From IMG/VR virus record IMGVR_UViG_3300032007_000001: a stretch of DNA of 64,000 nt. One strand, 5' to 3'. This document shows positions 1 to 58,450 of this stretch, one piece after another. Below the pieces are notes generated by a model, which saw only the letters and a list, made by a program, of their open reading frames with translations, did not search any database and was not told the origin of the DNA. Source of the stretch: a virus. Taxonomy: Duplodnaviria > Caudoviricetes. Position 1 is the stretch's first letter. Each line of letters begins with the position of its first letter. The translations under genes and the position numbers were made by a program.

Positions 1-465
1 ATCTTTAATATCATCAATATCAGATTTTTTAGCTACCATTTCATCAATTTGTTCTGAAGTATATACATTGTCCTTATCAACAAAATTTGAAATGAGATTT
101 TGAACTTCTTCTTTCGAAAAAGTTTCTGTTTTTGTAAAAACATCACTTGTATTTGCTTTTAAGCGCAAATGAGCATTTACTGTTTCTATAGTAGGATATA
201 ACGACATATCCGTATTTTCTGGCATATGTTCATTTAAGTATTCTATAGTTACAAAAGAAGAAGTATCAGGCATATGTTCGTCGACATAACCTTGCGTTGC
301 CAATCCACTTATATCAACATCTAAAACATTGTGAACTGCTTCATTTACTGTTGTTTGAGCAACAGTTTGAAGTACATTCGTTTTTGCTTCAGCTATTTTA
401 TTAGCATTATTATTTGATATTTTTTGTACTATGGATTTCGCTAACTGTGAAAGTGCTTCTGACAA
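1..465 (-). CDS. Partial fibre-like virion protein with YTKxE-type repeats (runs off the window start)
   Basis: Not in the ORF track. GAGGTG SD then TTG at 465; open to position 1: MSEALSQLAKSIVQK...LKANTSDVFTKTETFSKEEV...VYTSEQID, similar repeats to 784..3417. Confidence 0.75.
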   Translation of the reverse strand, partial: MSEALSQLAKSIVQKISNNNANKIAEAKTNVLQTVAQTTVNEAVHNVLDVDISGLATQGYVDEHMPDTSSFVTIEYLNEHMPENTDMSLYPTIETVNAHLRLKANTSDVFTKTETFSKEEVQNLISNFVDKDNVYTSEQIDEMVAKKSDIDDIKD

Positions 466-14179: not shown

Positions 14180-15871
14180 TTAGAACCTTGAAATACGTCC
14201 ATAACGCGCAAATGGAGCTCTTGATTGTCTACCAACAATAGCTGCAAAATTTGCCAAAACGTCAGCGTCGCAACAGTCATCATGATAACCTGCTGGAGCT
14301 TCAATTTTTTTATTAACAGTTTTACCTATCGTATATTCAAGGTCTGCCCATTCTCCTACCATTTTGTGATAAAAGCCAATATGGTCTTTGCCAGCGCTGT
14401 CTAAGTTAGAAGATAAAAACTTATCTTTTGATACGTATTTGAATTTTCCAGAATCTAATTCTGTCCTAAATTTACCATACATAACATTTTTCATATTCAT
14501 ACCAGAATGTGTATATCTGTCTCCAGAATTAAATATAATTCCTTCTATATTTGTTAACCCAAATTCACTTTGAAGAGTTTGTATAACTGGAGCACCACAA
14601 CCAGTATAATCAGCAAAGATTTTCTTTACTTCAAATCTTGGACTATACCCACCAAACATATGACTTATTTCATACATTTGTTGAGGGTACGTTTCTTCCT
14701 TAAATTCTCTTGCAAAAACCTTGTGTTTTGTTCCATCTGGGCATATTCTTAAAACAGTAATATGTGTACTGTCTCCTTCCGGATTAGACCCAGCAAAGTC
14801 AATGCCAGCAACATATGTCTCTCCTACTATGCCATGGTCTAGCCATTCAAATTCACTGTCTATCATAGAATTAACTTCTTCGGACGTCAAAAATTTGCCA
14901 GCGCCGTCAACGAATTCTAGCATATATTGCGTCTTAAAGTCTTCAATGTCCATGCCGCCTTCTGTCCAGACTTCTGGATTATTTGGAAAATATTCTTGTT
15001 TCAACGCTTTTGGCATTAATTGTTCTACAACATATCTAGAATATGGGCGTATTTCTCCAGTGTCTTTGTCTGGAAGCATAATAGCATCTAAAGCCCACAA
15101 CTGAGCACATTGCGTCCAATCTCTTCGTATTACTTTCCACTTTTCTGATTCTTTCCCTTCAACAGATTGATAAAAATGGTTTTTTGACTTTGGAGTACCA
15201 ATTTTGATTATTTTCGCGTTGGTTGCGCCGCCCATAGGTGCTATACGTTCTGACCAAGTATAGTTACTTACTTTTTGTGCTTCGTCTAATATAATAACAT
15301 CAAATGTCAAACCTTCAATATTAGCTTGGTCTGATGCAGAAACAGCAGATACATATGAATTGTTTGACATTTCAATTTTATCTTTTGTTAATTTTGCAAT
15401 TTTATTATTCAAACGTTCTTCATTCATTTGAAAGAAAGTAGACAATCTTCCAATACTAACTTCAGCCTGTGGTAGGCGAGGAGTAAAAATACCAACTTTC
15501 ATTTGTGGATAATTGTCAATCAAATATCCACAAATGGAAGCTATTGATTCTGTTTTCCCAGTCTGACGTGCCATCATGCCGGCAACCTGCTTAAATTTAG
15601 GATTGCAAGCTGCTCGTACTAAATCAACTTGATTTTGATGAAGATAACGTTTTGATTCTGGATAATGATTCCTTAATATATTTTGACAATATTCTACTGG
15701 GTCAATACGGTCTAAAAAATGTATATACATAAAATCTTTTAAGTCCATACCACCAATAAAATTTTCTCTTGAAGCTTCAGAAATTTCTTCATGAATAGCT
15801 TCAAGATTATTTTTTATATCTGTAGTCAATGCTTTTGTTGCTTCAGATACTCCATTTTTCTTTTTTGCCAT
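14180..15871 (-). CDS. terL: Terminase large subunit
   Basis: Walker A ARQTGKT, Walker B IILDEAQ, motif III IGTP, nuclease GIDFA...HDDCCDA. Confidence 0.93.
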   Translation of the reverse strand: MAKKKNGVSEATKALTTDIKNNLEAIHEEISEASRENFIGGMDLKDFMYIHFLDRIDPVEYCQNILRNHYPESKRYLHQNQVDLVRAACNPKFKQVAGMMARQTGKTESIASICGYLIDNYPQMKVGIFTPRLPQAEVSIGRLSTFFQMNEERLNNKIAKLTKDKIEMSNNSYVSAVSASDQANIEGLTFDVIILDEAQKVSNYTWSERIAPMGGATNAKIIKIGTPKSKNHFYQSVEGKESEKWKVIRRDWTQCAQLWALDAIMLPDKDTGEIRPYSRYVVEQLMPKALKQEYFPNNPEVWTEGGMDIEDFKTQYMLEFVDGAGKFLTSEEVNSMIDSEFEWLDHGIVGETYVAGIDFAGSNPEGDSTHITVLRICPDGTKHKVFAREFKEETYPQQMYEISHMFGGYSPRFEVKKIFADYTGCGAPVIQTLQSEFGLTNIEGIIFNSGDRYTHSGMNMKNVMYGKFRTELDSGKFKYVSKDKFLSSNLDSAGKDHIGFYHKMVGEWADLEYTIGKTVNKKIEAPAGYHDDCCDADVLANFAAIVGRQSRAPFARYGRISRF

Positions 15872-32178: not shown

Positions 32179-32630
32179 AAGTTAATTCTCCTTATAATAT
32201 TGCCATTGTTTTTGACAACTGTGGATTCAAAATCAAAACTAAATTCGTTGTCAACATTAATATTAAAAACATCTTTTGAATTATTAGAAATTATTTCTTT
32301 ATATGTGTCAATATCCAAAAAATCACAATTTGTAAATTCATTAATAAGATGAATTTTTGCAAATGTTTTATCTTCAAAACTATAAAGAAATTGCAATATC
32401 TTATCATCATCATGATATTTAATTTCTTTTTCCAAAGAACTATTATAATCCTCAATGAAAATAGAATTAAATATCCAATCAACGTAATCTTTTGGAGACT
32501 TTATTGAAATCTTTTTCATTTCTCTCAAAAAATATTGCTTCATATAACTATCAAAATTTTGTCCTTTTTCAAAAGAAACCAAAAATTGAGTAGAAGAAGA
32601 ATTTGTAATGAAATCATTTCTAATTTTCAT
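32175..32630 (-). CDS. TNSSS-tag protein 1
   Basis: MKIRNDFITNSSSTQFLV; ATGA overlap with the rSAM stop. Confidence 0.8.
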   Translation of the reverse strand: MKIRNDFITNSSSTQFLVSFEKGQNFDSYMKQYFLREMKKISIKSPKDYVDWIFNSIFIEDYNSSLEKEIKYHDDDKILQFLYSFEDKTFAKIHLINEFTNCDFLDIDTYKEIISNNSKDVFNINVDNEFSFDFESTVVKNNGNIIRRINL

Positions 32631-33772
32631 TTTTTATATTTCTCCTTTTTATCACACAACACTATTTCATGTTTGATTGGACATCCACCCATGCATATAA
32701 TTCTTTTATCGCAATTCATACAAGAATGCATAAGTCTGCTTCTAAAATCATTGAATTTATCAGATTCCCATGCTTCTTTTAATGTATGATTTCTTAAGTC
32801 TACGCCCCATTTCATTTCTTGGTCAAAACTACATGGCATCATATGCATATTAGCAGAAATATAAGCAGAAAATCTACCACCTTCACAAGTATCTATGGAA
32901 TTCTCATCTATGTCTTCTGAAAAATTTACAATTGCTGGAATAGAGCATGAATCAAATCCAATCTTAAACGGATGTTCTTTGGAAACCAAAAAAAAGAATT
33001 TTTGAATCTTTTCAGAATCGTTTTCCAACGTTAACATATTGTCAATTCTTCCAAGACCAACTGGTTTATATAACAAAAAAATAAATGCATTGATTGGATT
33101 TTCTTCAAAATTATAAATATAAATTTTATTATCGTCTTTCCATTGCAACATATGTTTTTCCAATAAATCAATTGCATCATTAATTGTCTCTTTTGAGAGA
33201 ACAAAATGTATATTCGTTTTACATCCAGCATCAATAAATTTTTTCAAAGCATCTACAGTAAATTTTTGATAATACCATGAAACAGCCACTGCACCACAAT
33301 ATTTTTTTGTAGTAACAACTGCGTCATCAGTCAAATCAATACCGGATGTAGTATAATTTGGAACGATATTATTGCTTCTTGTATATTCACATATTTCATT
33401 AAAATATTGATGGTCATTAGGATTACCAGCTCCACCAAGAGCTACTTGCATTAATCCGTTTTCTTTTCCTTCATCAATAATGGATTTATAATCATCTAAC
33501 TTCATGTCCTTCTCTGGGTCATATTTCCTTGCTCCTTGGTAGCAACCAGATATACTACCACCAGCACGACACAAACCCTTAGAAGCGGCCTTACAACCTC
33601 CCATGATACCGATGTCAAGCAACCCTGGAAAAGAACGCATAAATGGGTCTATGTCAGTATCTTTTCCATCTTTCAAAATTCCACTTCTTATATATTCACC
33701 TGTCAATGTATTAAAAACTTCTATAAATTTGAATTTATAATCAGAATATTTGAGAATATGATTGTTTTCCAA
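32627..33772 (-). CDS. Radical SAM/SPASM domain protein with atypical CX7CX8C motif
   Basis: LDIGIMGGC..C..CYQ; QVALGGAGNP; NYTTSG; SPASM CEGG..PCSF..CMNC..CMGGCP; AAGGAGG SD. Confidence 0.88.
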   Translation of the reverse strand: MENNHILKYSDYKFKFIEVFNTLTGEYIRSGILKDGKDTDIDPFMRSFPGLLDIGIMGGCKAASKGLCRAGGSISGCYQGARKYDPEKDMKLDDYKSIIDEGKENGLMQVALGGAGNPNDHQYFNEICEYTRSNNIVPNYTTSGIDLTDDAVVTTKKYCGAVAVSWYYQKFTVDALKKFIDAGCKTNIHFVLSKETINDAIDLLEKHMLQWKDDNKIYIYNFEENPINAFIFLLYKPVGLGRIDNMLTLENDSEKIQKFFFLVSKEHPFKIGFDSCSIPAIVNFSEDIDENSIDTCEGGRFSAYISANMHMMPCSFDQEMKWGVDLRNHTLKEAWESDKFNDFRSRLMHSCMNCDKRIICMGGCPIKHEIVLCDKKEKYKK

Positions 33773-39570: not shown

Positions 39571-40656
39571 CTATTCATTAACTTTCCAGCATTGTGGGTC
39601 TGGACTATAGAAATTCCCGTTTGTTCCACAAGACACCGCTGGACATCCACGACAGAATGCAAGTAATTTGCAATCTTTACATTTTTCAAATTTATCAAAA
39701 TCTCTATAGTAATTCATTTTATCTCCAAGCCAAACTTCAGAAATATCATCTGTTAAAGCATTTCCAACAACAGAATCATTAATTCTTCTGCATGCCAACA
39801 AATCTCCATTTGGCAAGATTGTCATATGTCCAATTCCACAATGACAACCCGTATATATCGTATCATCATTTTCTTCTACATAATTTGGAGCATCCAATCT
39901 TCCAATTTCATAATGGAATAAATTCCATAGATGGTCCTTATATCTAAAACTCGTTGTACATCCAACACTTTCATAAAAATCAAAACGGTCTTGCATTTCT
40001 TCCAAAAATTTTCTATATCTTTCTGGAGTCAATCTATTGCTTTTATCTTCATAAACTGGAACGTATCTAGAAAACGTAAATCTTCTAGCTTTCCAAGCAA
40101 CCTCATCTACAAGCGATGGAATTTCATCGATATTCTTATCACTGACTGTAGACATAATAACACTATATAAATCATTTCTATTCAAACATTTTAATGCTTC
40201 AAATGTAGCATCATAACTTCCAGGTTTTCTAAACCAGTCGTGCGTTTCTTTTAATCCATCTAAAGACAATTGATATTTAGTACATCCACTATCTTTTAAT
40301 TTTTCAGCAACTTCGTCAGTTAAATGGAATGGATTGCCAAGAATAATAAATTCAATTTTATTTTTCTTTAATTCTTTTATCAAGTCCCAAAAATTCTTAT
40401 GAAGTAACGGGTCTCCACCAGTAATAGCAAACACTGGTACTCTATGTAATTTTTTACACGAACTAATAACATTATTCAAAACTTTTTGCATATTATCCCA
40501 TGACATTTCTACAAGATTTTTGTTTCCGCCATGGAAAATATAACAATGCTTGCATCTTTGGTCGCAATTATCCGTAATGTGCCATTGAAAAGATAATCCC
40601 ATTCTTATACTATCATCATTAGTCCAAGATTTCCACATATTTATGCGGTCTAACAA
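39571..40656 (-). CDS. Radical SAM/SPASM peptide maturase resembling the ACGX-system family
   Basis: FQWHITDNCDQRCKHCY (CX3CX2C); TGGDP; SPASM GCHCG..ACRR..CKDC..CRGCP..PDPQCW; GGAGG SD. Confidence 0.9.
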   Translation of the reverse strand: MLDRINMWKSWTNDDSIRMGLSFQWHITDNCDQRCKHCYIFHGGNKNLVEMSWDNMQKVLNNVISSCKKLHRVPVFAITGGDPLLHKNFWDLIKELKKNKIEFIILGNPFHLTDEVAEKLKDSGCTKYQLSLDGLKETHDWFRKPGSYDATFEALKCLNRNDLYSVIMSTVSDKNIDEIPSLVDEVAWKARRFTFSRYVPVYEDKSNRLTPERYRKFLEEMQDRFDFYESVGCTTSFRYKDHLWNLFHYEIGRLDAPNYVEENDDTIYTGCHCGIGHMTILPNGDLLACRRINDSVVGNALTDDISEVWLGDKMNYYRDFDKFEKCKDCKLLAFCRGCPAVSCGTNGNFYSPDPQCWKVNE

Positions 40657-43727: not shown

Positions 43728-46553
43728 TTGGATTATTCATTGATTAAAATAAACGAATGGCGTGTTTTTAGTATGGAAATTATAAATATTCTTACAAAAA
43801 ACGTAATTTCTTGCGATGAAAACAAAGTAATGCATAACATTGCTTATAAACGTAAAAAACAAGTGGTGACTATCTATGATGGCCGCCGTTTCGGCGTTGA
43901 AGAATATGAAGAACATATTAGAAACACCAATTTAATGATAAATACATTAAAGAAAAATTTGACAAAATCGTTTATAAAAGAACAAATAGATTTATTTGAA
44001 AAGAAACTTTTGTTCTTGAATTTGTTATATATTAAGAAGCCAGTAGTTTTCTTAAGATTCGAAAATAACATCAAATATTATTATGAAAACAATGGTTTGG
44101 ATGTAAAAATAACAAAAAGAATGTTTTATGGTAAAAAAGCAGATGAAAAATATCCAAATCGTTTTATAGCGGAGAATATAAAGATAGTTCCGCTTATTTT
44201 CAGTGATTGGTGTCAGGCAATCAATTTCATTAAAGAATGCATATATGAAATCAATGGACATGAAATCAAGGAATTAATTAACGTATATAATGTTATTCAC
44301 GAATTCCCTATTGTCAATACAGAAAAAATTCATCATTGCATTTCAGATAAAATGGACGACAAAGAAAAAAATAATGTATTAAACGATATAGCACATCAGA
44401 TTTTCGGAAGTCACGCATATAATACGCAAGAGATGGATGTTGTTAGAAAAGATGAAATGGTCAAATCAATTGTGCAAATTCCTTTGGATTTTGATATTTC
44501 CATAATCAAAAATAAAAAAGCATATCACATGAAAAATGAAAGACCAAAAAATAAACATAAAGAATCCATTATTGAAAATTTATTGAACAATAAATTCTTT
44601 TTGCCATATTCTATAACAGAAACACACAATGGTGAACAAGCATATATAGCACTAGATAAAAGATATAAGATTTGTGATGAAAATAACGGAAAAATACGTA
44701 AAAGCAATGATTGGCTTACAAAAGAAGGATATAAGAATTTAATAGAAGTGTTGATAGAATTCATAAATAAAAATATAGATAAGCACATAGATTGCAATGT
44801 AAAACATATAACTCAGATTATGCGTCAAGATATGTGTCTGCATTATAAGAAAGACAATAAATCCATAACAATGAATAAAATTGTGTACGTAGCAGAAAAA
44901 GAAGAATGCAATAAATATTCACCGGAAAAATTATTGGATATCATAGAAAAAGAATGCATACATAAAAACCAAATGCTTTTGGCAAAAAAAGCAGCTACAG
45001 CAAAACAGCTTCTTCGCAGAAATTTATTATTAAAAAATTTGATTAAAGACGACAAAAAACAGAAAATAATACGCAAGATAGCAAAAAAACATCGTTCTAT
45101 GGACTGCATAAATAATCTATCACATGATGATTTTCGTCTTCTTGTCGACAGCGTGAGAGAGCATGAAGGATATTCTGACTATCTAACAGATAAATTTATG
45201 TCAAACAAGAAATTAATGGATGAATTGAATAAATTTCCAATAGAATTATACTTAGACAAAAATGAAAACAATGAAATACTAGATAATAACAATTCTTTTT
45301 GCGCACCAATTTCAATATTTAGGAAAAATGAATGCCGTATATTGAGTGATACTGGAAGCAATACCAATGTTAATGTTTTGAATTTATTTGCTGGAATAGC
45401 AAAATTATCAAATAAAGATTTCTTAAAGTTTGTCAGAGAAAGTTTGGATATTAATTATTCCTATGATGGCGAAGGAGAACGTCTAACTCAAACAGCAAAA
45501 AAATTGGATTGGAATATAAAAAGAATTGAAAATGTTCTTAAAAATAGAAAAGGAAAAGAAAAAAAATATTTCACTTTAGCATTAAAATATTTGGATTTCT
45601 TAAAAAATGCAGTTATTGAAAATATTGATTATAGATATAATCAATTGTTCAAAAAAGATTACGTGATAATGAATTATAATTTGCTTAGCGAATTTGTAAA
45701 AACAAAAACAAATAGAAATACAAAATTTCACAATAATGATATTGGTTATATTATCATCAAATCTTTAGCCATGCTTGGAATTATTGAAATATTTAAGGGT
45801 AACAGAGACGTTAAATATATGTTTTCAGGCGGAGCAACCAGTAAACAATGTACTGTATTAAAGTTTAATGAATTATCAGAAAAAACATTAATAGAAAATA
45901 TGAAAAAGATTATTGAAAAAGAAGAAAATGCACATAATAAATCAGTGTCTATTTTTACAAGCACTTTTAAGTTTAAGTTTTTAGAAAAAAAATATGGAGA
46001 ACTGGCAATATCTTGTCAATCTAAATTGGTAAAAGAAAAAATGTTTTCATCATTAGGGTTGGAAGCTAGATATTGCGAAGAAAAAACAGAAATAGACCAA
46101 TTAAATTTATATGAACGAAATATATGTACCAAAATAAGATACATTATTCTTGGTTCTTTTGCCAAACATATTTCTTTTAAGAATATGACAAAAGACCAAT
46201 TAATGCAATTATATAAAACATACCAAACATGGTCTATAAGATGTTTACAATTGAATAATATACGAAATATGTCCATAGCAATAAAAAATATTGCTACTTT
46301 TGTGTATAACATTTTTAGTGAAACTATGCAGGTATTTTTGGATAAAAAAATAAAACCGAAAATTGATTATAGCAATTGGGTATATAAAAGCAATATTGGC
46401 ACAAGAAGTATAAATAAAAACAATTGCAAAAAGATTATAAGAGAATTATATACAAATAAAAAAATAAAGGAATACGACAATTTCATAAAGAATGTTTGCC
46501 CTATTCCTTTGGAATTTACGAAAATACACAATAACTTTGAATTGTGTGTTTAA
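43728..46553 (+). CDS. Large basic hypothetical protein (possibly DNA-binding/replication)
   Basis: 941-aa K/N-rich ORF; no recognisable catalytic motif. Confidence 0.65.
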   Translation: MDYSLIKINEWRVFSMEIINILTKNVISCDENKVMHNIAYKRKKQVVTIYDGRRFGVEEYEEHIRNTNLMINTLKKNLTKSFIKEQIDLFEKKLLFLNLLYIKKPVVFLRFENNIKYYYENNGLDVKITKRMFYGKKADEKYPNRFIAENIKIVPLIFSDWCQAINFIKECIYEINGHEIKELINVYNVIHEFPIVNTEKIHHCISDKMDDKEKNNVLNDIAHQIFGSHAYNTQEMDVVRKDEMVKSIVQIPLDFDISIIKNKKAYHMKNERPKNKHKESIIENLLNNKFFLPYSITETHNGEQAYIALDKRYKICDENNGKIRKSNDWLTKEGYKNLIEVLIEFINKNIDKHIDCNVKHITQIMRQDMCLHYKKDNKSITMNKIVYVAEKEECNKYSPEKLLDIIEKECIHKNQMLLAKKAATAKQLLRRNLLLKNLIKDDKKQKIIRKIAKKHRSMDCINNLSHDDFRLLVDSVREHEGYSDYLTDKFMSNKKLMDELNKFPIELYLDKNENNEILDNNNSFCAPISIFRKNECRILSDTGSNTNVNVLNLFAGIAKLSNKDFLKFVRESLDINYSYDGEGERLTQTAKKLDWNIKRIENVLKNRKGKEKKYFTLALKYLDFLKNAVIENIDYRYNQLFKKDYVIMNYNLLSEFVKTKTNRNTKFHNNDIGYIIIKSLAMLGIIEIFKGNRDVKYMFSGGATSKQCTVLKFNELSEKTLIENMKKIIEKEENAHNKSVSIFTSTFKFKFLEKKYGELAISCQSKLVKEKMFSSLGLEARYCEEKTEIDQLNLYERNICTKIRYIILGSFAKHISFKNMTKDQLMQLYKTYQTWSIRCLQLNNIRNMSIAIKNIATFVYNIFSETMQVFLDKKIKPKIDYSNWVYKSNIGTRSINKNNCKKIIRELYTNKKIKEYDNFIKNVCPIPLEFTKIHNNFELCV

Positions 46554-46994
46554 TTATCCGCAAGATGTTTGCGAATCACCGCCGCTGCAACTGCATGAAC
46601 AAGACTAACTCGAACAATTTTGCGTGCAATTCGTTACTGGTGGATTTGGGTCTGAATTTTGTTCAGAAGAATCTATATTGTTTATAAAATTTTTAATTGT
46701 TTCGTCTGTTTTTATTAAGTCGATTATTTGCGATATGGCGTCATCCAATGACACTGGTTCATATCCAAGTGCGTCAACTATTTGATTTTTTGTCAGTTCT
46801 ATATTTTCTGAGTCGATTGATAAATTTTTAAGTATTAATTTTTGCAATCCATTTTTACTAAAAGTGTTTTTACTTAAATTCTTCATATAATATGTCATAT
46901 CTTTTATCTGATTAACTTCAGTTTCAAAATGATATGATTCCAATTCGTTCGTTGACGAATTGGGTAAGTTAAATTTAGATTTTTTTATTGACAT
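46554..46994 (-). CDS. Cys-rich-tail fibre-like protein C; in-frame TAG at 46605..46607 (ends at 46605 without readthrough)
   Basis: Paralogue (HFETEVxQI, LGYEP); after the TAG the frame continues SCSCSCSGGDSQTSCG-TAA. Confidence 0.7.
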
Positions 46995-47012
46995 ATTTCA
47001 TTCCTCTCGTTT

Positions 47013-47510
47013 TTAATTGTCGTTATCATCATTTGCGCTGCCGCAACTGCAACTACAACTATACGTACAATTCGTTTGCGTCGCTGTACATTGACTGCAT
47101 TCAATTGTATTTTTTATTGAATTACATTGTTTGCATTGTGTTTCTGTGCATTGATTACATTGTAGATATGTTGTTCCGCCTTTTGGTTTATTGTTTTTTA
47201 TGAATTCTTGTATTTCTTGATTTGTTTTTACAATATTGGTTACTTGTGCTTTAATTGTTTCCAATGTTGCCGGTTCATAACCAAGAACATCAATTATTTT
47301 ATTTTTTGATAATGATATATTATTGGAAGTAATTTCCATGTTTTCGGTAACAGAATTTTGCAATTCTTCTTTAGTTGTTATTGTTTTATTTAATTTTTTC
47401 ATATAAGAAGTCATATCTACTATTTGGTCGACTTCTGTTTCAAAATGATGTGGTTCGTATTCATTGGTTGAAGGATTTTGTAAGTAAATTACAGATTTTT
47501 TATTAGCCAT
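47013..47510 (-). CDS. Cys-rich-tail fibre-like protein B
   Basis: HHFETEVDQI, VLGYEP; 10 Cys in the C-terminal ~50 aa, ending CTYSCSCSCGS. Confidence 0.8.
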   Translation of the reverse strand: MANKKSVIYLQNPSTNEYEPHHFETEVDQIVDMTSYMKKLNKTITTKEELQNSVTENMEITSNNISLSKNKIIDVLGYEPATLETIKAQVTNIVKTNQEIQEFIKNNKPKGGTTYLQCNQCTETQCKQCNSIKNTIECSQCTATQTNCTYSCSCSCGSANDDNDN

Positions 47511-47528
47511 TTTTCATTCCTCTCATTT

Positions 47529-48005
47529 TTAGCTTCCGCAATTTCCACAACTGCAGCTGCAACTGCATGAATAACTGCATTCCCGATAATTGCAATTATA
47601 ATATGTACAATCTTTACATTGTGTATAAGTACACTGGTTGCAATTTTTGCATTGAACCTGAGTTGCTGCGGCGTTTTCTGGTATTTCGTTTTTAATGTAA
47701 TCCTTAATTTCTTTATTTGTTGTAAATGTATTTATAATATTCGTTTTAATTGTTTCCAATGTTGATGGTTCATTTCCCAAAGCATTTACAATAGTATTTT
47801 TTGAAATTTCAAGGTCTTCAGAATTTGCTTCTATATTTTCCGAAAGTATATCACATAATTCATTTTCATTTTTTACTGTTTTATTCAATTCTTTCATATA
47901 ATCAGTCATATCTGCTATTTGGTCTACTTCAGTTTCGAAATGATGAGTATCAAACCCACTAGCAGAAGAATTTGGTAAATGCATCGTTGATTTTCTATTT
48001 GCCAT
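47529..48005 (-). CDS. Cys-rich-tail fibre-like protein A
   Basis: Start reassigned to MANRKS (GAGAGG SD, matches paralogues); 12 Cys in the last ~40 aa. Confidence 0.8.
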   Translation of the reverse strand: MANRKSTMHLPNSSASGFDTHHFETEVDQIADMTDYMKELNKTVKNENELCDILSENIEANSEDLEISKNTIVNALGNEPSTLETIKTNIINTFTTNKEIKDYIKNEIPENAAATQVQCKNCNQCTYTQCKDCTYYNCNYRECSYSCSCSCSCGNCGS

Positions 48006-50354: not shown

Positions 50355-51317
50355 TTAACTCCAAGGCAGATTTTTAAGTTTATCTGATAAACTTTGTATT
50401 CTTCCAGAAGAAAATCTTTGGTTTTGTTCATTAATTATCTTATTATCTTGTGTATGCAGATACATATTTGTATGTACACTGTGAGCAGTCAATCCAGCAA
50501 CTCTTTCCATTATTTTGGCTTCTCTATCTGCACCAGTTGTGACAATAGATGTTTCGAAGAATTCTGGATTGATATTATATTCCATGACTGGTAACATTTC
50601 GCCATTGAATGACATTGTCATGCCCTTGTAGTTTCTAATATGTTCGCACATGTTTTCTTCTGTAGTGCATTCATTACCACAAATAGAGCATATTGATTTT
50701 TCTACAGTGCATCCCATAGAAACGTCAGTAATCATTTGTGTACGTAATGCTTTTGCCAATTCTGGGAAAGCTACCTTATCAATAGCAAAAAGAATTTCTA
50801 CTAAATATTTATCAGGATTATAGACAACATCTAATATAATGCCTCTTGCATCTTCTACATTTTCGTTGTTATGGTCAACGAAAATTGATTTGCCGCGAAG
50901 CGTTTCAAATGGGCCATTCAGTTGTTCATAATTTAATTTCTTGCCAGTAGCGGCTTCGCAGGTTTTATCATTTGTAAGATGTTCATGCATAAAAGCATCG
51001 CCATTGTCATTGCTATTTCTGCAATACTTTGAATATTTTGCTAAATTTTTCTGATAAGTCTCAAAAGGAATCAATTCATAACTTCCATCTTCGTGCTCTA
51101 TAACGTTACCAGACGTTAATGCTACAGCACGATGATATTGGAAGTCATTTTCTTTTGGAGCAACCTGTATTACTTTCCCAGCTGTTTTTACCATAGCTGG
51201 GTCAATTAATGTTTTAGATTGCTTAAGTATATCCATTCTTAAGTTATGGTAATCTTTTAAAAGGCCTTCATACTTGTTAGCTTCTATTTTACCACGTATG
51301 TTTTTCTTTGTTATCAA
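50355..51317 (-). CDS. Prohead (capsid maturation) protease with Zn-finger insert
   Basis: IFVDHNN...RGIILD...TDVSMGC..CSICG..CEH..FFETSIV..GAD..AKI; start reassigned to TTG after GGAGGTG. Confidence 0.8.
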   Translation of the reverse strand: MITKKNIRGKIEANKYEGLLKDYHNLRMDILKQSKTLIDPAMVKTAGKVIQVAPKENDFQYHRAVALTSGNVIEHEDGSYELIPFETYQKNLAKYSKYCRNSNDNGDAFMHEHLTNDKTCEAATGKKLNYEQLNGPFETLRGKSIFVDHNNENVEDARGIILDVVYNPDKYLVEILFAIDKVAFPELAKALRTQMITDVSMGCTVEKSICSICGNECTTEENMCEHIRNYKGMTMSFNGEMLPVMEYNINPEFFETSIVTTGADREAKIMERVAGLTAHSVHTNMYLHTQDNKIINEQNQRFSSGRIQSLSDKLKNLPWS

Positions 51318-51663
51318 GTATGACACCTCCATCCTCGTCACTGCAAAGATAACCGTTTTCTCTTAAATATTCTCTTGTCTTAAATAAACATTCTTTCCAA
51401 TATTTTTTGCAAGTATTTCTATCTGCTTCTACGCCAACAATATCATCAAACAACCCGTTCTTAATTTGGTCTCTTAAATCATATATTCTTTCACTTGTTG
51501 GAATCATTGGCATATCAGCAAGAAGCATTTTTGCCAATAGAAAACTTTCATCGCTTAAGTGTTTATTTGTTGAATTATTAATTACTATATCATTAATGAT
51601 ATGATGTATATATGGTGAGCCAAGTCCTTGGTCACTAGCCGTTTTCTTTCTAAGTCTTTTCAT
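51289..51663 (-). CDS. Hypothetical protein with MKRLRKKTAS leader
   Basis: In the portal-protease operon. Confidence 0.7.
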   Translation of the reverse strand: MKRLRKKTASDQGLGSPYIHHIINDIVINNSTNKHLSDESFLLAKMLLADMPMIPTSERIYDLRDQIKNGLFDDIVGVEADRNTCKKYWKECLFKTREYLRENGYLCSDEDGGVILDNKEKHTW

Positions 51664-52072: not shown

Positions 52073-52984
52073 TCAAACTATTGTTGTTAGAAAATAATTG
52101 TAGATATCTTCATCTACCAATTGCAAAGTTTCTCTATCAAGAATGAATGCAATTAATGATTCCAACAAATAATTAAACGAATTTTGTTCTGCTAGAAAAC
52201 TAATAAACCGATTGCTGCTAAAAGATTTCGTTTTTCTGTAAAAAAGTGCTTTCGTTCTTTCGTTTTCTTCTACTTTTAATAGATGTCTCAATAAATCTTT
52301 TTTATACGTAAATGCATCGAATTTCTGATAAATTTTCCTATCTTCAACGAACATTAACGTATCTTCCGATTTATTATAAGTCATTGGGTCGTTAAAGTAA
52401 GTTATTTTTAGATTTTTTTTTATTAAAAATTTATACCGCATCAACATAAAACGCATAAATGATTCAATTGCATTTTTATATTTTACAGGTACATTAAAAA
52501 ATTGATAATCATGTGTAATGATATTGATTGTATTTTCAAAGTTTTCTTTTAATTCCAAATAAGAATCACAATCATCATGTAAAAAATGGTCATCCAAATT
52601 TTTATTTGTACTCTTTAAGAATTTGCAAATATCACAACATTTATCGTTTACAACGAAATTGGTTTGTACATTTTTGCTATGCTCCAATTGGCAGTTCTTA
52701 AAAATATAGCTTAGCTCTCTTTCGAGAATTTGCTTAATAGCATCAAATGGAGCTGAAAAATCTACTTTTTCCATGTAAACTTTCGTTTCAGCGATATCGT
52801 AAGAATCAATGAATTTATGATTTTCTTCTTCCACTTTTAATGATTTTTGTGCACATGCATCTATTACTAATAGATTATTTGTAATGAAATTGCATATACT
52901 GTCTATCAATTCTTCTTTCGTTAATTTTGGAGAGAAATTATACAAAAATTCACTGAGTATGTTCTTAACAGAATTATTCATCAT
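52073..52984 (-). CDS. Putative minor head (MuF-like) protein
   Basis: Directly after portal; CCDIC...LHDDCD resembles the MuF C..C..H..C motif. Confidence 0.5.
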   Translation of the reverse strand: MMNNSVKNILSEFLYNFSPKLTKEELIDSICNFITNNLLVIDACAQKSLKVEEENHKFIDSYDIAETKVYMEKVDFSAPFDAIKQILERELSYIFKNCQLEHSKNVQTNFVVNDKCCDICKFLKSTNKNLDDHFLHDDCDSYLELKENFENTINIITHDYQFFNVPVKYKNAIESFMRFMLMRYKFLIKKNLKITYFNDPMTYNKSEDTLMFVEDRKIYQKFDAFTYKKDLLRHLLKVEENERTKALFYRKTKSFSSNRFISFLAEQNSFNYLLESLIAFILDRETLQLVDEDIYNYFLTTIV

Positions 52985-54689
52985 TTTCTCCTGTTACTAT
53001 TGGTTCTTTTTTCATTCCCATGTGTCTTCTAAATCTTGGTTTCACAGACGCTTCCGGAAGCCCAAAATCACTTGGATTGTTGTTTATGGATAATCCATTG
53101 CCTGTCATAGAAGGAGGCTCTGGTCGAGGCGTGGCGTCTTCTCCATAAGGTTGTTCTATTATACTACTACCAGTCTCAATATCATCTGGTTGTACCAAAC
53201 GTTTGCCTTCGTTTGGCAACGGACCTTCCTTAGGAGCGTTCGGGTCAAATATGGTGCCACGTTCTCTTTCAAGATTTTTCTTTTCTACTTCTGGGTCTAA
53301 TCCAATGATTGGATAAAGCGTTGTCTTAGACAACATGCCAGCTTCGCTAAGCTTTTCAAAGAAGCTCATAATAGAGTTATTGGAAGTTAAGTCTTGCTGT
53401 TGCCAAGTAATCTTTGGTACAATTAATTCAACTTCCTTGTTGGCTGCCATTTTTTTCAATTGTTTCCCACTATAACCAGCAATACTTCCACCGTGTCTAT
53501 GCTTATAAAATCCTTGTACTTCAGCTATTGGACGATAGACTTTATTTCTTACCCAAGATTCTAATCTCATACGGTAAGTCATATATCTTCTAGCTAAAGC
53601 GTCTACACCAACTTGAGCAGTGTTATATGTACTTCCATCACCATTTAATAATGCCGATGTTATTCCTAATCCCGCCATCAATTCTTTTTCTATGAAATCA
53701 AATTCAGTATTTAATGGCAAAATCTTTCCGCTTGAACCAACATATTCAAAACTTAATCCATAATGATAAACTAAGAAGAAGTTTGGGTCATCTTCACCAA
53801 TAAGAAGTATATCTCTAAAATTATCTATTTCTTCTTGAGATGGATAAGATTCTCCGGGTGTACCAAGTTTTGCTACTCTTAATGGAGTAATATGTCTATT
53901 GGCTATAGCATCTTGTGCTTGACGAAGTTTGTCTTTGTACATCAACGTCTTAAAACATCTCATCATTAACGGTGTTCCCCACATTTCATATGGAGATGCT
54001 TTATGAGCTATATGACTTACCAATCTATTGTCAAGCATAATGTTTTTGCCCATTTTGACTTGACGTATTATGTCTTCTGGGAATTGTTTGTATAATTCTG
54101 CGAATTCGCCAACTGGACCAGCTTTTATGATAGACATTACTTGGTCATCTGGTATCAATTCTATAATTTGGTCTTGAGCAAATATAGAAGAAGATATATT
54201 TACATAATCTGGATTTAATAATGTAAAACGTTCCCATTCGCCAGTTGTTTCATTGAATTGTCCGAATGGAAAAACATCACCTATTTTCCAGTATTCCAAT
54301 CCAATATCCAAAAGCAAATTAATAATATCTAATTTATCAAAAGCCAAATAATCAAAAAATTCTTTGACTTTTGGTTCAGAACATACGTTACTGAAACTAG
54401 AAATAGGAAATTCTGTATGTATATCTAATGCTGTTGCTACAACAGGCTCTGTTCGATAGTAGTGGCGCGCCCACTCATTTCTCTCGCGCCTATCTCTTGG
54501 AAGGAACATTGATAAGGCTTGGAACAGCGGATGAAAGAAATTCGGCGCGCCGAATTTCACATCCAGAGATGCTGCGGTGCGTTTCATATTTCTTTGGGTT
54601 TTTTGCGGGAGAGAATTAGAATCTATAATTGTATTAAACATTCCATTTTTAGCAATGGCAGCAGTTTTATTTATATGATTCCTTTTCAA
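52974..54689 (-). CDS. Portal protein
   Basis: YYRTEPVVATALDIHTEFP; EYWKIGDVF; LLNPDYV; HIAHK...WGTP; upstream of the prohead protease. Confidence 0.85.
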   Translation of the reverse strand: MKRNHINKTAAIAKNGMFNTIIDSNSLPQKTQRNMKRTAASLDVKFGAPNFFHPLFQALSMFLPRDRRERNEWARHYYRTEPVVATALDIHTEFPISSFSNVCSEPKVKEFFDYLAFDKLDIINLLLDIGLEYWKIGDVFPFGQFNETTGEWERFTLLNPDYVNISSSIFAQDQIIELIPDDQVMSIIKAGPVGEFAELYKQFPEDIIRQVKMGKNIMLDNRLVSHIAHKASPYEMWGTPLMMRCFKTLMYKDKLRQAQDAIANRHITPLRVAKLGTPGESYPSQEEIDNFRDILLIGEDDPNFFLVYHYGLSFEYVGSSGKILPLNTEFDFIEKELMAGLGITSALLNGDGSTYNTAQVGVDALARRYMTYRMRLESWVRNKVYRPIAEVQGFYKHRHGGSIAGYSGKQLKKMAANKEVELIVPKITWQQQDLTSNNSIMSFFEKLSEAGMLSKTTLYPIIGLDPEVEKKNLERERGTIFDPNAPKEGPLPNEGKRLVQPDDIETGSSIIEQPYGEDATPRPEPPSMTGNGLSINNNPSDFGLPEASVKPRFRRHMGMKKEPIVTGENDE

Positions 54690-57433: not shown

Positions 57434-58450
57434 TTAATCTATAAAAATTTCTCGTAATTCTTTAATAGGCATAAAAAATTGTTTGCTTACATTACAAAAG
57501 TAATTATTCATAGTTTCAGTACTTTGTAGCATACATCCGCCTCTACAATATACATTAACATCGCAATTAATGCATTGTTCTTTTCTATGTTCTTTATAAA
57601 AATTTAATACCTTTTTTGTAATTAAATAATTATTATTCTTTACATTTCCTAAAACAATATCAGAATTATGACATAAATATAATTTACCATCATTGGTTAC
57701 GTTAATGATATTCATTCCATTCATGCATTTGGGAAATCTATAATCATATTTATGCAAATCTCTTTCTATAAGAGAATCAATATATAAGTCACTTGCTTCT
57801 ACATTTGTTTTTTCATCTTGTACATCAATATAATGATTGCATAATTCTTTCATTTGATTATATAATAAATTAGAATCTATGTTACTTAAATCATTTAAAT
57901 TATTATTATTTAGAAGCAAATCTAAGTTTGTTGTTACGTGTCTTTTATGTTTTTGAATATATTTTTTATTGAATTCTTTAATAGAATCAAACCAATCTTT
58001 TGGATAATTATATTTTGTAATAACACCTGTTAAACATAATCCTTTTATTTTTAAGAGTAAATCTTCTTTTTCTTTTAGAACGTTATACCCTCTAGTAATA
58101 TCAGAATTATTACCGTCATAACTAACACCAACAGAAAATAAATTCTTATTAAAGTAATTAACATATTCTTCATTTAATAATTTTCCATTCGTTACAATAT
58201 TGTATCTTATTTTTCTTTTGAATTCATTGACATATTTTTTTATATCTTCAAAAAAGATAAGCGGTTCTCCGCCAAAAAATGTTAATTTTGATTTTTCTTT
58301 TTGAGAAGATATGATTTTGTGAATATAATCAAAAACATTTGTATCAATTTCATGACTTAGTTGTTCATTGACTATATTATGTTGTATGCAATACTTACAA
58401 TTTAAATTGCATTCATGGCCAAGCATTATAAAAATATTTGCTATTTTCAT
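57434..58450 (-). CDS. Radical SAM/SPASM domain protein (anSME/thioether-maturase-like)
   Basis: CNLNCKYC; FFGGEPL; VTNG; VSYDG; SPASM C..G..YLCH..CINC..CRGGC..C. Confidence 0.9.
   Translation of the reverse strand: MKIANIFIMLGHECNLNCKYCIQHNIVNEQLSHEIDTNVFDYIHKIISSQKEKSKLTFFGGEPLIFFEDIKKYVNEFKRKIRYNIVTNGKLLNEEYVNYFNKNLFSVGVSYDGNNSDITRGYNVLKEKEDLLLKIKGLCLTGVITKYNYPKDWFDSIKEFNKKYIQKHKRHVTTNLDLLLNNNNLNDLSNIDSNLLYNQMKELCNHYIDVQDEKTNVEASDLYIDSLIERDLHKYDYRFPKCMNGMNIINVTNDGKLYLCHNSDIVLGNVKNNNYLITKKVLNFYKEHRKEQCINCDVNVYCRGGCMLQSTETMNNYFCNVSKQFFMPIKELREIFID

Follow-up and report, generated by a model that had tools for sequence, protein, structure and literature searches.

A megaphage radical SAM enzyme as a candidate for cross-linking the cysteine-rich tails of fibre-like proteins in trans

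Introduction

The radical SAM enzyme PapB links cysteine to aspartate in the repeated C-X3-D units of PapA (freyrasin), and QhpD makes intra-protein thioethers between cysteine and aspartate or glutamate in a structural subunit that is retained in the final assembly. The closest published precedent for the phage system considered here is CrpA/CrpC, in which CrpC of Methanococcus voltae installs ranthionine links at C-X-X-Q/D motifs on the 28.8-kDa, Cys-rich protein CrpA (PMC13692751, 2026). In a literature search, radical SAM modification of phage structural proteins was not found described.

The locus analysed lies in the window, which means the whole stretch of 64,000 nucleotides of phage DNA that was studied; positions refer to it unless the genome is named. 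Three tandem genes, p1-p3, encode fibre-like proteins built to end in Cys-rich tails, and a radical SAM/SPASM enzyme of 338 aa (57434..58450, minus strand; the 57434 enzyme) is the candidate for modifying them in trans. As with CrpA/CrpC, a SPASM radical SAM enzyme would target an entire protein, within its Cys-rich C-terminal region, instead of a short peptide, the cysteines are paired with Q or D, and the paralogous substrates share their N-terminus; unlike the phage enzyme, CrpC belongs to TIGR04463 and has an N-terminal RRE, of which the 57434 enzyme has neither, and CrpA is a cellular protein of 17-residue repeats, whereas the phage carriers are fibre-type proteins whose candidate enzyme is encoded 9.4 kb away. 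The resemblance to PapB/PapA lies in the similar size of the 57434 enzyme and in the C-X(1-4)-[QNDE] units of the phage tails. In contrast to both PapB/PapA and CteB/CteA (SCIFF), the putative phage substrates are fibre-like proteins of 129-165 aa with no signs of leader removal or export, their tails add a Cys-Ser ladder, and in the window their genes do not adjoin the enzyme gene. QhpD/QhpC, the system of the quinohemoprotein amine dehydrogenase gamma subunit, offers intra-protein thioethers and the second-best NCBIfam match of the 57434 enzyme, but the dehydrogenase context is absent and the substrate would be a phage protein. A second radical SAM/SPASM enzyme in the window (39571..40656, minus strand) recalls the ACGX system by its family, TIGR04340, and by the S-C-G-x near the ends of the phage tails, but a TIGR04341-like peptide is absent and nothing found ties this enzyme to the tails.

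Results

Genomic setting

The window comprises bases 353438-417437 of a 504,279-bp IMG/VR virus record with a CheckV completeness of 100% and a GC content of about 28%, and it harbors the genes for terminase (14180-15871), prohead protease (50355-51341) and portal (52974-54689) together with several tail-fibre genes. Close relatives of the region were found neither by DNA nor by protein search of an annotated phage collection, and the promoter and terminator scan gave no signal exceeding that of shuffled sequences. A 941-aa protein is encoded convergently with p3 (43728-46553, plus strand), and the only match from its Pfam and PHROG searches is a weak one (E 0.03), a Gp68-like RNA polymerase component. 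Outside the window, tRNA-Gln, tRNA-Cys, tRNA-Asn and tRNA-Tyr genes are clustered at genome 2930-3294 and a tRNA-Ser(GCT) gene is located elsewhere; these tRNAs decode the residues that dominate the Cys tails, including the AGY serine codons of the CSCSC ladder.

Modular architecture and fibre relationships of p1-p3

The three genes lie in tandem on the minus strand, separated by gaps of 18 nt, each with GAGAGGAAT positioned 5-7 nt upstream of its ATG as a common ribosome-binding site. Gene p1 (47529-48005) encodes 158 aa from the ATG at 48005 and comprises an N-module (residues 1-55), a fibre repeat unit (residues ~54-100) and a Cys tail (residues 119-158); p2 (47013-47510; 165 aa) has the same architecture with a tail of 48 residues, and p3 (46605-46994; 129 aa) has the same N-module and repeat unit. 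The proteins are thus modular, consisting of the N-module, one fibre repeat unit and the Cys tail, whose C-X(1-4)-[Q/N/D/E] units give way to a C-S-C-S-C-S-C-G ladder. Relative to p1, p2 is 51% and p3 42% identical, the N-terminal ~110 residues are common to all three, and the motifs HFETEV, QIxDMTxYMK and LGxEP are invariant, as the original prediction of tandem paralogues with a shared N-terminal region of ~110 aa had proposed. The AlphaFold2 model of p1 was uninformative (pLDDT 44), and no protease or exporter gene was found adjoining p1-p3.

The N-module recurs at the N-terminus of two further proteins of the same genome, of 626 aa and 297 aa. In the longer one, Pfam detects Collar (E 6e-18) and Gly_rich_2 domains, and PHROGs gives numerous matches to tail collars and tail fibres. 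A profile search of 1.84 billion protein representatives returned 22 matches, in which the module heads proteins of 114-441 aa, among them one with a Collar domain (P0009) and one assigned to tail fibres by PHROGs (P0012). In one database protein (P0010), the N-module is joined to RecU (Pfam E 4e-33), and the gene is probably mis-called or chimeric. The module was not found in the IMG/VR pattern scan, in a word-based search of longer proteins or in five related large-phage records. Similarly, residues 54-100 of p1-p3 represent one unit of the repeat G.IS....NVT.ALGYEPP of a 1200-aa protein (genome 350300-353902), the N-terminal 155 aa of which are encoded within the window (1..465, minus strand); this protein is a tail fibre by PHROGs, and its repeat region also matches Pfam Phage_head_fibr. 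The fibre-like character that had been proposed for p1-p3 is therefore well supported by modules held in common with recognised fibre proteins. Their location would be on the virion, on the tail or possibly on the head, since the fibre repeat matches Phage_head_fibr and the genes lie near that of the head protease.

Composition and distribution of the cysteine tails

The tail of p1 contains 12 Cys within its last 40 residues, arranged as C-X(1-4)-[QNDE] units followed by CSCSCSCGNCGS, and that of p2 contains 10 Cys within its last 48 residues and terminates in CSCSCGSANDDNDN; the two tails quoted in the original prediction, with 12 and 10 Cys, match these exactly. The same tail is present on the unrelated, Ig-like N-termini of a second pair of genes (genome 480850-481470 and 481488-481835), where it reads CNQC, QCKDCTYY[NE]CN and then YSCSCSCSCG. 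By its sequence, the Cys tail is a portable module, carried either on the putative docking module of p1-p3 or on Ig-like N-termini.

All five tails of the genome are two-part, with C-X(1-4)-[QNDE] units followed by a Cys-Ser ladder that ends in G, and SCG is located near the end in five of five. The residue directly before each of the 43 non-first cysteines is S (17), Q (12), N (7), E (4) or D (3), while Tyr and Thr, abundant in the tails, never directly precede Cys; since this holds for 43 of 43, the pattern is not a product of chance. D, E, N or Q occupies the position before the next Cys in 66% of cases, versus a background of 34%. Repeated Cys-Xn-acceptor units (acceptor D/E/N/Q), as would be looked for in a thioether substrate, are therefore present in one part of the tail, and the remaining half is a Cys-Ser ladder that follows no known acceptor logic, which counts against cross-linking.

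The description of the tails as hypervariable was not borne out, as they differ among the paralogues, but in the single strain variant, a 96%-identical p1 from another sample, all 12 Cys and 38 of the 40 tail residues are kept. A tail profile gave zero matches in five phage records. The tail is too variable for a pattern scan, and a degenerate DNA pattern for SCSCSCG in the IMG/VR scan returned off-frame repeats, among which no clear relative was recognised.

The third protein, p3, ends in ...NCTQNCSS at a TAG codon (46602-46604), with just two Cys before the stop. Downstream of this TAG, the in-frame sequence (46554..46604, minus strand) encodes SCSCSCSGGDSQTSCG up to a TAA at 46554, the coordinate at which the original prediction begins, and thereby a vestigial tail of the form SCSCSCS...SCG. 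Recoding of TAG was considered and rejected: a suppressor tRNA is absent from the genome and no excess of TAG is seen between long open frames, so the standard code applies. The tail of p3 is taken as truncated or decaying, and an extension by read-through is less likely. The TAG itself may have arisen by recent nonsense mutation, may vary within the population or may be read through.

Radical SAM enzymes of the genome

The 57434 enzyme matches Pfam Radical_SAM and SPASM and carries C14-x3-C18-x2-C21 and a seven-Cys SPASM region, the combination of CX3CX2C motif and approximately seven SPASM cysteines that characterises PapB/CteB-like systems. C14, C18 and C21, together with C242, C260, C293, C296, C302, C306 and C319, are conserved between this enzyme and a 46% identical paralogue encoded at genome 478594-479619. 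Its best NCBIfam match is PapB (NF047865; 104.3 bits versus a cut-off of 340), followed by QhpD (85.8 bits versus 453), with the SCIFF maturase (TIGR03974) at 84.8 bits versus 425, and among solved structures CteB ranks first (5WGG; E 2.7e-18, with CteB residues 100-420 aligned). Each of these top matches, in family and in structure, is to an enzyme that forms thioethers; on the other hand, the 57434 enzyme passes no curated family cut-off and scores far below them, which counts against cross-linking. No RRE domain was detected in it, as the alignment begins at CteB 100 and the radical SAM motif already lies at residue 14, and TIGR04463 was absent among the best 25 of the 58 families matched.

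Within the window, the 57434 enzyme is separated from p1-p3 by 9.4 kb containing head genes, and this want of adjacency counts against cross-linking; the gene directly downstream of it encodes a protein of 234 aa that is acidic and has no Cys tail. The paralogue, in comparison, is located 1.2 kb upstream of the second tail pair. In the surroundings of that pair (genome 473033-486112), PP-loop-like genes (SGGI[DS]S) occur in duplicate, along with one more radical SAM gene and with Cys-rich genes of ~329 aa, and the whole resembles a larger modification island.

The 39571 enzyme passes the TIGR04340 cut-off (480.6 bits, cut-off 400), with SbtM as its next best match. The matching ACGX peptide model (TIGR04341) gave zero matches in the 504-kb genome at E values up to 10, and no relatives of the enzyme were found in the IMG/VR pattern scan. 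It had been supposed that the window holds two radical SAM/SPASM enzymes, at 39571 and 57434, with no adjoining precursor, and this was confirmed, as both match Pfam radical SAM and SPASM and their neighbours are not Cys-rich; the accompanying proposal of the 39571 enzyme as a tail enzyme was not sustained, this being an ACGX-type enzyme outside the Cys-tail clade described below and lacking its peptide.

The genome encodes ~13 radical SAM-like proteins in total, nine of which match Pfam SPASM (seven above the cut-off), and three of these nine are in the window, including a third SPASM protein at 32627-33772. Because of this number, another radical SAM enzyme could be the partner of the tails, which counts against the pairing with the 57434 enzyme. 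The SPASM-matching proteins fall into several unrelated clades, one of which is a trio of paralogues of 286-289 aa (genome 9445, 69683 and 239575).

Association of the enzyme clade with cysteine-tailed genes in other phages

A search of IMG/VR with the 57434 enzyme and its paralogue as queries identified 15 loci, ten of which contain a full-length relative. In all ten (GC 28-50%), the enzyme gene is directly followed on the same strand by one or two Cys-tailed genes, encoding proteins of 97-301 aa whose tails hold 11-14 Cys per 40 residues. A Cys density of this order was observed in only 18 of the 556 mechanical ORFs of those loci, and 17 of the 18 lie directly after the enzyme. In the maximum-likelihood tree, the 57434 enzyme and its paralogue at genome 478594 are placed inside the clade of these Cys-tail-adjacent enzymes (support 100/99), whereas eleven radical SAM-like proteins of the genome, the 39571 enzyme among them, fall outside it. 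The co-occurrence of Cys-tail genes with 57434-like enzymes, suggested at the outset as a check, was accordingly positive, in ten of ten loci and for the paralogue beside the second tail pair, and the Cys tail of the fibre-type proteins goes together with a single clade of phage radical SAM enzymes.

In one of these loci (L019), the genes for tape measure, Dit, a tail protein and a tail fibre precede that of the enzyme, after which come two Cys-tailed proteins, another radical SAM enzyme and putative lysis genes; the PHROG comparison covered the tail genes and this other radical SAM enzyme, and the lysis genes were read from the sequence alone. In the siphovirus-like loci L019 (7580-8212) and L027 (7289-7915), a 208-210-aa protein encoded after the tail-tip genes also carries a short terminal ladder (NCNCDCSDDSGGA, DCDCGDDSGA), and substrates may for this reason exceed the two enzyme-adjacent proteins. 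In addition, the Cys-tailed genes of L019 (11730-13928) and L023 (11734-13914) are followed by conserved proteins of ~130 aa and ~290 aa and by a second radical SAM enzyme that forms a sister clade (support 100/99); this set was not found beside the genes of the window.

The tails of the genome and those of the enzyme-adjacent proteins of other phages have in common a C-x-C-x-C-G/S ladder with a Gly/Asp-rich end. The tails of the other phages are of a CQ type, with Q at position +1 in 81%, whereas those of the present genome are of a QC type, with the amide at position -1 in 66%, and a profile comparison of p1-p3 with the CQ-tail family detected no homology. The substrates are therefore not the same, which counts against cross-linking.

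Discussion

The best-supported mechanism for p1-p3 is the ranthipeptide-like thioether cross-linking of their Cys tails in trans by the phage's own PapB/CteB-like radical SAM enzyme, to which we give a slightly better than even chance on the evidence of the enzyme clade, its gene neighbourhoods and the tail pattern. The N-module of ~55 residues would most likely dock p1-p3 on the virion, because it heads tail-collar and tail-fibre proteins both in this genome and in other phages, and the Cys tail would be the substrate of the 57434 enzyme or of its paralogue at genome 478594. The enzyme probably recognises the tail itself and acts in trans from 9.4 kb away, as suggested by the absence of an RRE and by the occurrence of tails and N-module each without the other. 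By analogy with PapB, QhpD and CrpC, a bond would form between each Cys sulfur and a carbon atom of the acid or amide residue at the end of the unit, and the flexible tail would be converted into a stack of small thioether rings, forming a rigid tip resistant to proteases and redox conditions; in p3, most of such a tail would have been lost to the TAG stop.

The main competing explanation is that the tails are metal-binding or disulfide-forming ends, resembling metallothionein or a metal site on the axis of a trimeric fibre tip, which receive no enzymatic modification while the radical SAM enzymes serve other substrates. The dense CxC and CxxC spacing and a Cys content of 24% suit metal binding, the enzyme does not adjoin p1-p3 in the window, and CrpA was itself suspected of binding metal by its authors (PMC13692751). 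However, metal binding has no need of the strict rule that S, Q, N, E or D precedes Cys, and it leaves aside the position of the enzyme clade beside Cys-tailed genes in ten of ten loci of other phages and close to the genome's second tail pair, so that we consider this explanation rather unlikely. It is more doubtful still that p1-p3 are RiPP precursors, with a leader of ~110 residues and a Cys core that is released, for instance against competing bacteria or phages: a conserved N-terminus with variable cores in tandem paralogues does resemble leader and core, and CrpA and CrpB likewise have common N-termini (PMC13692751), but the N-module is also found on Collar and tail-fibre proteins without Cys tails and the tail on Ig-like proteins without the N-module, while a protease or exporter gene is absent beside p1-p3 and the 57434 enzyme is without an RRE. 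Modification of the terminal S-C-G-x motifs by the 39571 enzyme, alone or with the 57434 enzyme, is the least probable proposal, as its passing of the TIGR04340 cut-off, its close kinship to SbtM, a thio(seleno)oxazole maturase of which it is the nearest relative, the SCG near the end of all five tails and the lack of another substrate adjoining it are opposed by the lack of any genomic match to the ACGX-peptide model up to E 10, by its place outside the Cys-tail clade and by the absence of relatives in the IMG/VR pattern scan.

Returning to cross-linking in trans, the broader proposition that Cys-rich fibre tips are cross-linked by radical SAM enzymes which phages themselves encode, and that the megaphage tip is a portable module modified in trans, appears to us evenly balanced. 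If it is true, enzymatic carbon-sulfur cross-linking of virus structural proteins would bring RiPP-type chemistry onto virus particles, and radical SAM 'RiPP' chemistry would reach phage fibres, beyond small peptides and the one archaeal protein, CrpA. The enzyme clade and the Cys tail together would provide a sequence signature for finding such tips, and cross-links of this kind could account for the stability of fibre tips toward proteases and under the reducing conditions of the gut or rumen.
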